From an uncultured Alphaproteobacteria bacterium (lineage in GTDB: Bacteria > Bacteroidota > Ignavibacteria > Palsa-1295): a stretch of 64,000 bases of DNA. The notes under the pieces are model-generated. The model searched no databases and had not been told where the DNA came from. It saw only the letters and a list, made by a program, of their open reading frames with translations. The stretch lies in contig CAYOJJ010000018.1 of assembly GCA_964404255.1 (NCBI GenBank), positions 356 to 64,355 on the forward strand. Reading direction: 5' to 3'. A program made the translations under genes and the position numbers. Below, piece by piece: positions 28,849-55,538 of the stretch; position 1 is the stretch's first letter, and the number at the start of each line of letters is the position of its first letter.

Positions 28849-28922
28849 CGGAGCGGACGGGACTCGAACCCGCGACCTCCTACGTGACAGGCAGGCGTTC
28901 TAACCAGCTGAACTACCGCTCC
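28849..28922 (-). tRNA. tRNA-Asp (GTC)
   Basis: The 74-nt sequence folds by hand into a cloverleaf: acceptor GGAGCGG/CCGCTCC, D-arm GTTC..GAAC, anticodon loop CTGTCAC, T-arm GCGGG-TTCGAGT-CCCGT. CCA is not encoded. Confidence 0.9.
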
Positions 28923-31856: not shown

Positions 31857-31929
31857 TGGAGCTGAGGGGACTCGAACCCCTCACCTTTTGAATGCCATTC
31901 AAACGCTCTACCAGATGAGCTACAGCCCC
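31857..31929 (-). tRNA. tRNA-Ala (GGC)
   Basis: 73-nt cloverleaf: acceptor GGGGCTG/CAGCTCC with the G3:U70 Ala identity pair, anticodon loop ATGGCAT, T-arm AGGGG-TTCGAGT-CCCCT. Confidence 0.9.
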
Positions 31930-50902: not shown

Positions 50903-51541
50903 TCAATCGTTCATCCTCATTGGTGTTTCAGGGAGGTCCTGATGAGCCATGATCTTAATAATATCGATAAGCATTGAAGAACGCTCTTTGAGTACCTCAA
51001 CGGTAGCATCATTGGTAACGACAAAATCGCTGTGATCTTCCATTGCCGGAGTATAAGCCTGATCTTTGAGGCGACGCTTGAGATCTTCCTCCTCAAAGCG
51101 GGAAAGCTTTTTATTCCGATACACGATCTCATCATCGCTGCAGGCGACAAGAATAATCGCATCGAATAAGGCATCGTATCCGCTCTGGAATAATAGTGCT
51201 GACTCGACGGCGATGATCTCTCCCGGTTTTGCTTCGAGAAAGCGTTGCTCGATCTGCTGCATGACGCGCGGATGAATGATCTTTTCCAGAGAGAATTTTT
51301 TGATTTGATCGGAAAAGATAGCCTCGGCGATAAACGAAGTATTTATTCCATCTTCGGTATACGCTTGCGTCCCGAAAATATTATTCACAAGTTTTCGGAC
51401 CTCATCATCGCTTTGCATCAATTCCTTCGCCAAGATATCAGTATTAAGTACGGTAATACCGGCCTGCTCGAATTCAGCAGCAACCGTGGATTTACCGCTG
51501 CTTATCTTTCCCGTAATGCCTAAACGAAACGCTCGTTTCAT
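50903..51541 (-). CDS. coaE: Dephospho-CoA kinase
   Basis: LGITGKISSGKST P-loop, with typical CoaE length and layout. Confidence 0.88.
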   Translation of the reverse strand: MKRAFRLGITGKISSGKSTVAAEFEQAGITVLNTDILAKELMQSDDEVRKLVNNIFGTQAYTEDGINTSFIAEAIFSDQIKKFSLEKIIHPRVMQQIEQRFLEAKPGEIIAVESALLFQSGYDALFDAIILVACSDDEIVYRNKKLSRFEEEDLKRRLKDQAYTPAMEDHSDFVVTNDATVEVLKERSSMLIDIIKIMAHQDLPETPMRMND

Positions 51542-51552
51542 ATAAATAAAAA

Positions 51553-51948
51553 GTGGTTCTTACAGAAGGTACCTCAACGCGGGTCGTTCAAAGGGGACAC
51601 AGACCCGGCCCTGCCGTGTAGTACCGAAGGACGTACTCTCGAAAGAGCGCGTGGATCGGCGCACGAGATGGGCCGGATGCTGCCGGTAATTGCTTACCGG
51701 AACAAAGGCTAAAAGAACCGATGTCCTTTTATAAACGGGCGCCTGCATTTCTTACCTTTTACTTCCACTGTCCCTCATCCGGCGGAGCCCGAAGCTCGGC
51801 ACGACCTATTGGAGTTCCGTATTGCTACGGTGAGGCCTGTAATTGGTACAAATCGCATCAGACGTCCATAGAGTCTATTTGTAAGGTTCTTTTTCGCGTT
51901 GTTGATCCCCAGTGCCGGCTTTCCGCCGGTACCTTCTGTAAGAACCAC
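51553..51948 (-). ncRNA. Candidate large structured RNA (396 nt) of unknown family, closed by a perfect 21-bp terminal helix
   Basis: Terminal arms 51553-51573 and 51928-51948 are perfect reverse complements. Nested helices and hairpins were found by hand. Two GCAA and one to three UUCG(-like) loops, plus G-U pairs, exist only in the minus-strand reading. A U-tract follows the 3' arm. See findings. Confidence 0.5.
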
Positions 51949-52132
51949 AAACTTATGGATCATACACTCATAGAACACAATGTTAAGACTAAATTTATCC
52001 CGATCTTTACACCCAAATGCCGATTTCTTTCAAAATGAGGGCTTTTTACCGAAAATAAAATCCCTTTTCGAGTGTAACATTCATAATTTCATCTGCGTAG
52101 GCATTCGTTTGTGAACCGGGCTTTACCGGAGC

Positions 52133-53203
52133 TTGGGTGCTGTTCGCTATTTTCTCAATGAAGGCATAGCAATTTTGACTATTACAACCTCATACCTGAA
52201 GAGACACAGAACGACAATTCTTGTTGTTCTCTCGGTTGCCGCAATCAGCGGTGTTTCTTTAGCCGCTATAGGTGTATTCCGAATCCCGGTAAAATTCGAT
52301 GGTCGTGAAAAACGGGTCAATGTCAATATCAAAGCGCCATACGGTGCTATTGCTGTCTATTCCGGGGCGCCGGCCGGCTATGCAGCCCTGATCGAATCAC
52401 AATCCAGCGACCCGGATGATAATCCTTCCATCCATGCCCGATATTATTATAATGCCGTTGGTGCTGTAGGCATGTTGAAACTTACGGTAGGTTCGGACGA
52501 GGGGATGCTTACTCAGCCAAAAGAATATGCCGAAGGATGGCTTGCTTCAAATGACGGATTTTCCCTTGCCGGCTACTCTACTATTCATACCGATGCCGGT
52601 TCCTATTCTACCCGAGATGTCTATGATCCGAGTCCCGGAGCCTATTCCAAGTCCAGCTCCGACGATATTTCAAGAGTCTTTCTTACCAGAGAATTGCCGA
52701 TGACCCTGAGCGCCGAACTTGGCTTCGGCGAGTCGATGCTCGATCTGAGCGGCTTACAACTTCAAACTGCCATGATCGAAACAAGCGCTGCAAAATCCCG
52801 CATTGTTAATCATTATAAGAATCCTATTCCGATGGACCACCTGACAGTAAATGCCGGTCTCGGTGAGTGTATCATGGATGGTCTTTGCAATTATAACTGT
52901 ACCCGTCTCGATTTTTCCGGTGGTATCGGTTACTATGAACTGCACTTTAATGGCAGTTTGCAACGCAACCTTGATGCTCATGTGGAAGTTGGCTGTGGGA
53001 AGGTCGTTCTTAGTATTGCTCCGGATGCCGGAAGAGTACAGGTGATCTATGACGATAATATTTTCAGTTCGTATTCTTTTGATGGTTTAAATAAACGCCG
53101 CGACGGATATTATACCAGTGTCGGCTTCGATCAATCGAATGCTCCGATGATCACACTTCGCCTTTCGGCTGGTGTCGGCAAAGTGGTGGTGATTTATAAA
53201 TAA
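52133..53203 (+). CDS. Hypothetical membrane-anchored protein, C-terminal beta-rich toast-rack-like domain (DUF2154/DUF4097-like) suspected
   Basis: N-terminal TM (TILVVLSVAAISGVSLAAIGVF). The C-terminus has repeated short beta-strand units (VNAGLGECIM, LDFSGGIGYYELHF, VEVGCGKVVLSI, LSAGVGKVVVIY). Only TTG starts are available (52133 or 52175). Confidence 0.55.
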   Translation: MGAVRYFLNEGIAILTITTSYLKRHRTTILVVLSVAAISGVSLAAIGVFRIPVKFDGREKRVNVNIKAPYGAIAVYSGAPAGYAALIESQSSDPDDNPSIHARYYYNAVGAVGMLKLTVGSDEGMLTQPKEYAEGWLASNDGFSLAGYSTIHTDAGSYSTRDVYDPSPGAYSKSSSDDISRVFLTRELPMTLSAELGFGESMLDLSGLQLQTAMIETSAAKSRIVNHYKNPIPMDHLTVNAGLGECIMDGLCNYNCTRLDFSGGIGYYELHFNGSLQRNLDAHVEVGCGKVVLSIAPDAGRVQVIYDDNIFSSYSFDGLNKRRDGYYTSVGFDQSNAPMITLRLSAGVGKVVVIYK

Positions 53204-53276: not shown

Positions 53277-55538
53277 TTACCGACGGCCGCCATAGCCGCC
53301 GCCGCGACGGTCACCACCGCCACCACCACGACGATCGCCGCCACGGAATCCACCACGGTCTCCGCCGCGATCACCACCACGGCCACCGCGATCTCCACCC
53401 CCTTCACGTCTCGGACGCTCGACATACCCTTCCGGCTTTTCCATCAAGGCTTTTCTCGAAAGCGAGAATTTGCCATCCGGCTTAACCGCAATAAGCTTTA
53501 CATCGAATTCATCACCGACCTGAATAAGATCGCTAATGTTATCGACACGGTTATAATCGATCTCGGAGATATGCATCAAGCCTTCCTTCTTCGGCAAGAA
53601 CTCCATGATAGCGCCGAGGCCTTCGCGAACCTGGGTTACTTTGGCACGATAGACGGTACCTTCTTCCGGCAATGCCGTAAGACCATCGATCATTGCTTTG
53701 GCCTTTGCAGCAGCTTCGCCGTTGGTTGCGGCAATAGTCAGCGTACCATCGTCCTCAATCGTAATATCATCGACACCCGAAGTAGCCTGGATCTCACGGA
53801 TCATCTTACCGCCAGGTCCGATAATCAGACCGATCATATCAACCGGCACCTTCATCGTGGTCATGCGCGGAGCATGCATCGAGAGATCGCCACGAGCAGC
53901 AGAGAGGGCTTCATCCATCTTTCCGAGGATGTGCATACGGCCTTCTTTTGCCTGTAATAATGCCTTCTCAAGAAGAGCAAAGTCAATACCTTTGATCTTC
54001 ATATCCATCTGGCAGGCCGTAATACCATCGCGGGTACCGCAAACCTTGAAATCCATATCGCCGAGGAAATCTTCGTTACCGAGAATATCGGAAAGAACCG
54101 AAGAGCGCTCCCCTTCTTTGATAAGACCCATTGCAATACCGGCGACCGGCTTCTTCAAATGCACACCGGCATCGAAGAGTGCAAGGCTTCCGGCGCAGAC
54201 CGTTGCCATCGAACTCGAACCGTTCGATTCAAGAATATCGCTGACAATACGAATGGCATACGGAAATTCTTCCGACGAAGGAAGCAGGTCCCTTAAAGCA
54301 CGCTCGGCAAGGTTACCGTGACCGATTTCGCGGCGACCGGTACCAGTCATTCTGCCAACTTCACCAACGCTGAACGGCGGGAAATTATAGTGAAGCATAA
54401 AACGCTTGGTGGTTTCCGGACGCAAGCCTTCGATGCTCTGCTCATCACGCTTGGTACCGAGAGTAACCGACGAGAGCGACTGGGTTTCACCGCGGGTAAA
54501 CAAGCTCGAACCGTGGGCTCTCGGAAGAACACCGACTTCAATCGTGATCGGACGAACGGTCGTCGTATTACGGCCATCGAGACGAATGTTATCGCTTAAG
54601 ATCATCTCGCGCATCTCACGCTTTTCGATCTCTTTTAAGCAAGCAGCAACATAACTTTCGGCTTCCGTATATTTTTCTTCGCCGAACTGAGTTTTAATTG
54701 CCTCTTTAACGGCATCTTTTGCAGCCGTTGTTTGGGTCGAACGCTCCTCTTTTGTGAGGATGGTACGGGCAAGACGACGAAGTTCGCTTGTAGCAAGTTC
54801 TTCGATACGGAGTTTAATTTCTGGATAATCGACCGGAGCGGCAACTTCACGCTTTGCCTTAGCAAGGCCGGATTCACGAGCAATACGCTCCAAGCCTTCG
54901 CAAACCAACTTGACAGAATCGGCGGCGGCACGAAGTGCTTCGAGATATTCGATCTCGCTGATCTCGTGCGATTCGCCTTCTACCATGACGATAGAATCTT
55001 TCGTGCCGGCTACGATAAATTCGTAATCGGCTTTCTCTAATTCATCGAACGTCGGATTAATAACGATCTGGCCTTCGATACGAGCTACGCGAACTGCTGC
55101 AATGGCTTCAGCGAACGGGATATCGGAAAGCAACAGGGATAGCGAAGCTCCGCAGACAGCCAGTACATCGGCGTCATTCTGCTGATCGCTCGAAATAACA
55201 AAAGCTACGATCTGCGTCTCATAATACCACTTCTTGGGGAACATGGGGCGGATCGGACGATCGACGATTCGCGCCGAGAGGACTTCTTTTTCAGAAGGCT
55301 TGGCTTCACGCTTGAAATAGCCGCCCGGTATCTTACCGGCAGCAGCCATACGCTCGCGGTACTCGACCTGGAGCGGTAAAAAGTCTATGCCTACGCTTGC
55401 TTTTTCAGAAGCACAGACGGTAGTGAGCACCATGGTCTCGCCAAGGCTCGTAACGGCCGACCCGGCGGCCTGTTTTGCATACTTCCCGATATCGAACGAT
55501 AATTGTTTACCGCCGGGAAGTTCTATTGAGTGTATCAT
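53277..55538 (-). CDS. pnp: Polynucleotide phosphorylase with C-terminal Arg/Gly-rich tail
   Basis: Two RNase PH domains, a KH domain (IGLIIGPGGKMIREI), an S1 domain, then a 51-aa RGG/DRGG tail. Confidence 0.93.
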   Translation of the reverse strand: MIHSIELPGGKQLSFDIGKYAKQAAGSAVTSLGETMVLTTVCASEKASVGIDFLPLQVEYRERMAAAGKIPGGYFKREAKPSEKEVLSARIVDRPIRPMFPKKWYYETQIVAFVISSDQQNDADVLAVCGASLSLLLSDIPFAEAIAAVRVARIEGQIVINPTFDELEKADYEFIVAGTKDSIVMVEGESHEISEIEYLEALRAAADSVKLVCEGLERIARESGLAKAKREVAAPVDYPEIKLRIEELATSELRRLARTILTKEERSTQTTAAKDAVKEAIKTQFGEEKYTEAESYVAACLKEIEKREMREMILSDNIRLDGRNTTTVRPITIEVGVLPRAHGSSLFTRGETQSLSSVTLGTKRDEQSIEGLRPETTKRFMLHYNFPPFSVGEVGRMTGTGRREIGHGNLAERALRDLLPSSEEFPYAIRIVSDILESNGSSSMATVCAGSLALFDAGVHLKKPVAGIAMGLIKEGERSSVLSDILGNEDFLGDMDFKVCGTRDGITACQMDMKIKGIDFALLEKALLQAKEGRMHILGKMDEALSAARGDLSMHAPRMTTMKVPVDMIGLIIGPGGKMIREIQATSGVDDITIEDDGTLTIAATNGEAAAKAKAMIDGLTALPEEGTVYRAKVTQVREGLGAIMEFLPKKEGLMHISEIDYNRVDNISDLIQVGDEFDVKLIAVKPDGKFSLSRKALMEKPEGYVERPRREGGGDRGGRGGDRGGDRGGFRGGDRRGGGGGDRRGGGYGGRR

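Follow-up and report, generated by a model that had tools for sequence, protein, structure and literature searches.

6S RNA is a small RNA that acts by binding and regulating RNA polymerase, and characterized 6S RNAs are about 150-200 nucleotides (nt) long. In beta- and gamma-proteobacteria, their gene, ssrS, is found "always immediately" after zapA, and in Escherichia coli it is co-transcribed with the downstream gene ygfA (PMC7641849). In E. coli-type 6S RNA, product RNA is synthesized along the 5' strand of the central bubble and the adjoining downstream duplex, whose 3' strand is thereby set free; that strand pairs with the 3' side of the bubble in a 9-bp hairpin, which drives release from RNA polymerase; the terminal stem is dispensable for polymerase binding, and a truncated 6S RNA consisting of the bubble and two short arms completes the cycle in vitro with ~10-fold lower polymerase affinity (PMC8876501). 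Here we describe an element at positions 51553-51948, minus strand, of a 64,000-nt stretch of contig CAYOJJ010000018.1, the whole of which is referred to below as the window. From sequence comparison, we place the probability at about 0.85 that this element is ssrS in a deep-branching, Kapaibacterium-like bacterium of the Bacteroidota.

Probable identity as 6S RNA

It was the position of ssrS after zapA in the beta- and gamma-proteobacteria that led us to take up 6S RNA as a candidate. Five relatives of the window element matched the general Rfam 6S model, RF00013 (model positions 1-187; Rfam gathering score 46.4 bits), over its full length, at the correct site and on the correct strand, with E-values of 1.1e-7 to 0.07:

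Locus L131: positions 1-187, 42.3 bits, E = 1.1e-7, at the site and on the strand of the element
Locus L091: full-length match, 39.9 bits
Locus L054: full-length match, 38.1 bits
Locus L040: full-length match, 32.0 bits
Locus L043: full-length match, 28.4 bits

When L131 is compared with the 6S consensus, GAACC / bubble / GGGA..., CAGGCC, GGAAG, and CCCAC / bubble / GGUUC all align, and the big internal loop falls on the central bubble. GAACC, GGG, CAGGCC, GGAAG, CCCA, and GGUUC are invariant, or nearly so, in the family alignment (A2). The window copy was reached through a profile hidden Markov model (HMM) built from the five RF00013-matching relatives, none of which is of the Kapaibacterium type: its sole match in 64 kb was the element (51752-51913, minus strand, E = 2e-6), and it recovered other Kapaibacterium-type copies at E-values down to 3e-16. 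The homology of the window copy to 6S RNA is thus indirect, though consistent, and on these two results the "unknown family" of the original prediction gives way to what is most likely a divergent, enlarged 6S RNA.

Several observations weigh against that assignment. All five RF00013 matches in the relatives lie below the gathering score; the window element had no RF00013 match, either at the gathering threshold or at E <= 10, and the same was true of locus L034; and a 396-nt RNA with a multi-branched closing stem is outside the usual 6S range. The window copy was most plausibly missed by Rfam because of its insertions. A length of ~150-200 nt, which the window RNA exceeds, is typical of 6S RNA but not essential to it, and size is where the window RNA is the variant. 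Furthermore, large insertions far from the bubble are plausible because the terminal stem is dispensable and a bubble with short arms suffices. The model for the Flavobacteria 6S-like RNA (RF01685) found no match in the window or the scanned relatives, even at E <= 10, and, 6S aside, no credible match to any of the 4227 Rfam families was seen at the element, whether in the window copy or in those of the relatives. The original prediction had excluded RNase P, transfer-messenger RNA, and signal recognition particle RNA, and no credible covariance-model match to these was seen at the element in the window or in the relatives.

The element in the window

The sequence GTGGTTCTTACAGAAGGTACC (51553-51573) recurs as its exact reverse complement at 51928-51948, so that a perfect 21-bp helix encloses 354 nt and the element measures 396 nt from arm end to arm end. 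The helix had been proposed from the letters alone and it stands: the arms are exactly complementary, and when up to three mismatches were allowed, the 21-mer had only two sites in the window, i.e., the two arms, and none in 100 dinucleotide shuffles. The window contains a single copy of the element, since BLASTN of its sequence against all 64 kb returned only itself, and an exact search of 185,579 species genomes found no occurrence of the 21-mer. The flanks are AAAAA and AAACT, with no obvious target-site duplication. The folding energy of the 396-nt stretch relative to shuffles gave z = -5.6 on the minus strand and z = -4.8 on the plus strand; together with the covariation described below, these scores bear out the earlier proposal of a structured non-coding RNA closed by a long terminal helix.

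The gap that holds the element is ~590 nt long, as first described, and is bounded by coaE on one side, with its AUG 11 nt after the 3' arm, and on the other by the next open reading frame (ORF), which starts at 52133 on the opposite strand. This 356-aa ORF (52133-53203, plus strand), divergent from the 6S gene, is without a Pfam match. Farther away, the polynucleotide phosphorylase ORF at 53277-55538 (minus strand) carries a long Arg/Gly-rich tail (...GGGDRGGRGGDRGGDRGGFRGGDRRGGGGGDRRGGGYGGRR), unusual for a bacterial enzyme of this kind. The sole Rfam matches in the window at the gathering threshold are two tRNA genes (28849-28922 and 31857-31929, minus strand).

Relatives and gene neighborhood

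Relatives were sought by pattern scans using RNA motifs only, two of them of the 185,579 species genomes and one of metagenomes, with confirmation by nhmmer. Weaker matches came up in the Ignavibacteria; the Ignavibacteriales loci were retrieved with RNase Y as the query, a scan that gave only Ignavibacteria. The lineage of the window is poorly sampled: its exact CoaE protein was absent from the collections searched, and the best homologue of the window CoaE is only 50% identical. The contigs of four CoaE homologues all have a large gap upstream of coaE that holds a conserved core of ~200 nt, and over 130 loci in all share this core, comprising Kapaibacterium-type metagenome-assembled genomes (MAGs) and contigs, all 80 of the Ignavibacteriales rny loci retrieved, and the free-standing L131. 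The conserved blocks of the core are CAACG..AAAAAGAACC; ATGG; CAGGCCTCAC; TGAGGGACAGTGGAAGTAAA; GCAGG..CCC; and GGTTCTTTTAGCC.TTGT.

The RNA-motif scans recovered about 21 Kapaibacterium-type copies. Apart from L006 and L133, the latter a fragment at a contig end, each copy immediately precedes coaE and shares its strand. These RNAs are 288-466 nt long and are separated from coaE by 11-370 nt; their terminal helices, measured by an ungapped helix scan, are 18-42 bp long, differ in sequence between copies, and are usually followed by a run of U residues. The Ignavibacteriales copies are shorter (~185-215 nt), as is that of L131 (~165 nt). The RNA was present in 80/80 of the Ignavibacteriales rny loci retrieved, directly after zapA and with its end 55-70 nt before rny. 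The gene orders are as follows:

Ignavibacteriales: pheT, zapB-like, zapA, RNA (~190 nt), rny
Intermediate group (L039, L040, L043, L136, and L147): zapA, RNA, rny, coaE
After coaE in L039, L040, and L043: aminotransferase, nadB
Kapaibacterium type, including the window: RNA, coaE, (aminotransferase), outer membrane protein, nadB

The linkage to zapA is thus found in the Ignavibacteria relatives, and neither zapA nor rny is present in the 64 kb of the window or in the Kapaibacterium-type loci. Because these loci have kept the RNA and coaE without the two genes, the adjacency to coaE is a leftover of synteny, the remnant of an ancestral zapA-6S-rny-coaE order. Two copies are found outside these contexts. 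That of L006 (1586-1840, minus strand) is flanked by pgk and a DUF4199 gene, and that of L131 (787-953, plus strand), from an AT-rich organism, is free-standing, with a divergent gene on one side and a convergent comM-like gene on the other; it has a TTGACA promoter-like site of its own, and its terminal helix, of 11 bp, runs into a stretch of U residues.

Some further features of these loci were noted in passing. L039 (CAYLZD010000001.1) and L043 (CAYQST010000001.1) are titled "uncultured Chromatiales bacterium" but carry an Ignavibacteria-type zapA-6S-rny-coaE-nadB block; the Chromatiales labels are probably wrong. In L050-L129, at about 2440-2500 (e.g., L073, L096, and L062), the 3' end of 6S is followed by a short A/U-rich hairpin, which precedes the Shine-Dalgarno sequence of rny and shares the final GCGG of the 6S closing stem (GCGGU...ACCGC, then AUUGGAGG); this hairpin could couple 6S end formation to the translation or processing of rny. 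The spacers between 6S and coaE in L013, L024, and L027 contain AT-rich direct repeats, and that of L018 has a palindromic insert of ~120 nt (gtcattctgaacgaag...cgttgctcagaatgac), possibly a small mobile element or one resembling repetitive extragenic palindromes.

Structure of the RNA

The window RNA has roughly double the length usual for a 6S RNA. The enlargement has three components: the 21-bp terminal helix (P1) extends the closing stem, a conserved two-hairpin domain of ~100 nt interrupts that stem, and two hairpins are present at the tip. The features of the locus are listed below with the evidence for each, where MFE denotes the minimum-free-energy fold and "constrained" the fold under the family helices.

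51553-51948, minus: whole RNA, putative enlarged 6S RNA (ssrS homologue); core matches the family HMMs, relatives match the full RF00013 model
51959-51986, minus: predicted sigma-70-like promoter, with TTAACA at 51986-51981, a 16-nt spacer, and TATGAT at 51964-51959; 10/12 match to the consensus
51950-51957, minus: TAAGTTTG box of the original prediction
51928-51948, minus: P1, 5' arm, continuing the 6S closing stem outward; exact complementarity, helices of the relatives
51553-51573, minus: P1, 3' arm; exact complementarity, helices of the relatives
51542-51552, minus: U-rich tract UUUUUAUUUAU, from P1 to the coaE ATG; U-run after P1 in most Kapaibacterium-type relatives and in L131
51905-51927, minus: 5' linker between P1 and the core; MFE and constrained MFE folds
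51917-51927, minus: linker hairpin GGC-GGAAA-GCC; MFE and constrained MFE folds
51905-51910 with 51593-51598, minus: linker GGGGAU paired with GUCCCC; MFE and constrained MFE folds
51885-51903, minus: closing stem beside the bubble, 5' strand (AACAA, GC, AAAAGAACC), the "downstream duplex" and predicted template for the product RNA; fold, alignment to CuGAgCC of the 6S consensus
51701-51719, minus: closing stem beside the bubble, 3' strand (GGUUCUUUU, GC, UUGUU); fold, covariation, alignment to GGuUC of the 6S consensus
51870-51884, minus: central bubble, 5' strand UUACAAAUAGACUCU, with a predicted product-RNA start at its 5' end; unpaired in the family consensus, corresponding to the RF00013 bubble columns
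51720-51734, minus: central bubble, 3' strand UUAUAAAAGGACAUC; RF00013 alignment, constrained fold
51834-51869, minus: internal stem, 5' strand (AUGG.CGUCUG ... UACC..UUAC.AGG.CC), with the invariant CAGGCC; covariation helices 2-5, fold
51735-51766, minus: internal stem, 3' strand (GG.AA.GUAA..GGUA ... CAGGCG.CCGU), with the invariant GGAAG; covariation, RF00013 alignment, fold
51771-51830, minus: apical branch in place of the ordinary simple terminal loop of 6S; constrained fold, helices 6 and 7
51817-51830, minus: apical hairpin 1, with a GCAA loop; constrained fold
51771-51813, minus: apical hairpin 2, branched, with its tip at 51785-51797; constrained fold
51600-51700, minus: insertion domain in the closing-stem 3' strand, ~100 nt, two hairpins; fold, compensatory changes
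51683-51700, minus: insertion hairpin A, with a GCAA loop; fold, compensatory changes in 7/8 pairs
51600-51682, minus: long insertion hairpin, with a UUCG tip at 51635-51648; constrained fold
51710-51731, minus: alternative 9-bp hairpin UAAAAGGAC / GUUCUUUUA, bubble 3' strand with closing-stem 3' strand; -8.7 kcal/mol
50903-51541, minus: coaE, dephospho-coenzyme A kinase (Pfam CoaE), the downstream neighbor, outside the RNA, with its ATG 11 nt past the 3' arm

From the outside inward, the RNA is a rod of the 6S kind: the terminal helix is followed by the AAAGAACC/GGUUCUUU helix of the closing stem, an internal loop of ~15/15 nt (the bubble), a long internal stem containing CAGGCC and GGAAG, and a branched tip. 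The closing stem, bubble, and internal stem are found both in the consensus and covariation of 66 non-redundant sequences and in the constrained fold of the window RNA. A core structure of 39 pairs was scored on the alignment of these sequences: 87.5% of cells were paired, versus 78.0% after shuffling, the observed figure being reached in 0/500 shuffles, and it fell to 35-55% when partners were slid by 1-3 columns. Double-sided changes occurred in 29/39 pairs; column pair 61/232, for instance, is G-C in 29 sequences and A-U in 26. The eight pairs of the bubble-side closing helix are 96.6% paired, with double changes in four, and the apical helices 6 and 7 are 76% paired, with double changes in 12/12 pairs. 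The insertion domain is conserved among relatives of the Kapaibacterium type: compared across nine relatives, 17/27 of its consensus pairs show compensatory changes. Imposing the family helices on the window RNA costs its predicted fold almost nothing (-157.6 kcal/mol versus -158.4 kcal/mol for the free MFE).

The strand follows from the pairing: several pairs are mainly G-U and would be A-C on the other strand, so the RNA is read in the direction of coaE and rny, i.e., from the window minus strand. This is the strand favored earlier, and the sigma-70-like promoter and the strand of the Rfam 6S matches in the relatives agree with it. The promoter, judged from its sequence, would place the predicted transcription start a few nucleotides upstream of the 5' arm. 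In the same region, 51950-51969 and 52070-52089 form a 20-nt inverted repeat, 80% complementary and 100 nt apart. At the other end of the RNA, P1 and the U-rich tract resemble a terminator or other 3'-end signal and probably set the RNA 3' end.

The helices previously nested by hand fared unevenly. That of 51603-51611 with 51670-51678 is retained in the family-constrained fold, as are the hairpins at 51817-51830 (GCAA), 51785-51797, 51636-51647 (UUCG), and 51683-51700 (GCAA), the last of which also shows compensatory changes in relatives. The pairings of 51575-51581 with 51895-51901, 51582-51587 with 51801-51806, and 51704-51708 with 51755-51759 conflict with that fold, and the hairpin at 51847-51883 conflicts both with it and with the covariation-supported internal stem. 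The hairpin at 51710-51731 is real as an alternative, release-type hairpin. It gives the window RNA the capacity for the E. coli type of refolding, and across the family the corresponding segment folds more stably than shuffled sequence: the 101 distinct segments have a mean z of -2.9, with z < -1 in 78%.

Proposed mechanism

By analogy with the 6S RNAs of E. coli and Bacillus subtilis, the RNA would mimic an open promoter and bind the housekeeping sigma-RNA polymerase holoenzyme at its bubble. On a nutrient upshift, the polymerase would use the 5' side of the bubble and the AAAAAGAACC strand as template for a short product RNA, whose predicted start is 5'-(A)AGGUUCUUUUU. This copying would unzip the closing stem, and the freed GUUCUUUUA strand could then pair with UAAAAGGAC in the 3' bubble as the 9-bp hairpin, upon which the RNA would be released. 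Expression of coaE, which lies 11 nt farther on, probably comes about through read-through or processing, in the manner of ygfA behind E. coli ssrS, and RNase III cleavage of the 21-bp stem is a possible maturation step.

Alternative readings

The additions to the 6S scaffold invite the suggestion that the Kapaibacterium-type RNA is composite and has two functions, the insertion domain and the 18-42-bp helix forming a second module that would serve either for protein docking or as an RNase III or terminator device tying 6S maturation to the coaE operon. We regard this as possible, though doubtful. A related reading is that the RNA is derived from 6S but now has a different or an extra job, with the insertion domain and long terminal helix binding some other partner; in a variant of this, the insertion and helix would be an RNase III processing module that ties the RNA to coaE expression. 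In either version, polymerase sequestration would no longer be the main role. The architecture of the ~100-nt insertion domain is indeed conserved with compensatory changes, long terminal helices have been kept among the Kapaibacterium-type relatives, and the window coaE begins just past the helix. However, the parts that the 6S cycle needs have all been kept, namely the bubble, the helices on either side of it, and the release hairpin, and insertions can be neutral elaborations. Taken together, the two versions of a changed role are unlikely.

A cis-acting leader, whether a riboswitch or an RNase-sensing 5' untranslated region, acting on coaE here and on rny in the Ignavibacteria, is highly improbable. 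The RNA does lie directly upstream of, and co-oriented with, the next gene in nearly all loci; neither the window nor the Ignavibacteriales have room for a separate promoter before that gene; and the small hairpin ahead of the rny Shine-Dalgarno sequence shares the 3' end of the closing stem. Nevertheless, the downstream gene varies with lineage, so that the "giant coaE leader" of the original prediction does not hold, nor do homologues always precede coaE: depending on the locus, the next gene is coaE, rny (80/80 loci), the DUF4199 gene (L006), or none. In L131, where the RNA is free-standing and the next gene convergent, there is nothing to regulate, and a leader cannot explain that copy. 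Perfect closing helices of 20-40 bp are not switch-like, the full-length 6S model matches account for the fold, and co-transcription with a downstream gene is equally a property of E. coli ssrS (PMC7641849).

A miniature inverted-repeat transposable element, also raised originally for a perfect 21-bp inverted repeat bounding an intergenic element of ~400 bp, is effectively refuted by the single copy in the window, the absence of the 21-mer from the species genomes, the lack of an obvious target-site duplication, and relatives that occupy the syntenic site with a conserved interior and with terminal helices that differ in sequence yet still pair, a pattern showing that selection acts on the structure of this helix.

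Other candidates were tried and set aside. RNase P has the wrong topology, in that the AAAGAACC/GGUUCUUU helix closes the inner domain only, and had no Rfam match; resemblances to cobalamin-like and other riboswitches found no Rfam support; and an autoregulatory leader of rny is inconsistent with Kapaibacterium-type relatives that keep the RNA without rny and with the free-standing L131.

Significance

We found no report in the literature of a 6S RNA in Ignavibacteria or Kapabacteria. What is new here is, first, the 6S RNA of the Ignavibacteria and Kapaibacterium-type clade, which scores below the Rfam threshold, and second, its Kapaibacterium-type branch, including the window, in which size is approximately doubled by conserved structured insertions. 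With about twice the usual size, reached through inserted folded domains, the RNA is missed by standard annotation. Its recognition fills an annotation gap for the whole clade, and a clade-specific model would annotate 6S RNA in hundreds of MAGs. The 6S scaffold apparently tolerates ~200 nt of extra structured RNA in its closing stem and tip, which fits the experiments with truncated 6S RNA (PMC8876501). The zapA-6S linkage known from the proteobacteria reaches the Bacteroidota/Chlorobiota group, which suggests that this arrangement is very old. In addition, one candidate riboswitch for coenzyme A is removed.

Comparison with known systems

The family resembles the 6S RNAs of RF00013, including E. 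coli 6S and B. subtilis 6S-1, in its closing stem, central bubble, and internal stem, and in the blocks GAnCC ... GGGA, CAnGCC, GGAAG, and CCCAC ... GGUUC. It shares with E. coli 6S the 9-bp hairpin in which the 3' side of the bubble pairs with the 3' strand of the closing stem (PMC8876501), and, in the Ignavibacteria relatives, the gene directly follows zapA as does ssrS in beta- and gamma-proteobacteria (PMC7641849). Like E. coli ssrS, the window RNA is probably co-transcribed with the downstream gene. Unlike the 187-position RF00013 model, it is 396 nt long, and it differs further by the two-hairpin insertion of ~100 nt, the 21-bp extension of the closing stem, and the branched tip.

6S-Flavo, or Flavo-1 (RF01685), is a proposed 6S-like RNA of Flavobacteria, thus also from the Bacteroidota, and it too escapes the general 6S model; the present family, in contrast, matches RF00013 and not RF01685. 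Ms1 of mycobacteria is described as 6S-like, associated with RNA polymerase, and outside the canonical 6S family (PMC11077062). It is larger than usual, at about 300 nt; its partner is the core polymerase and not the holoenzyme that contains sigma, and it is not known to have sequence homology to 6S. The present RNA, unlike Ms1, keeps both the 6S sequence blocks and the release hairpin.

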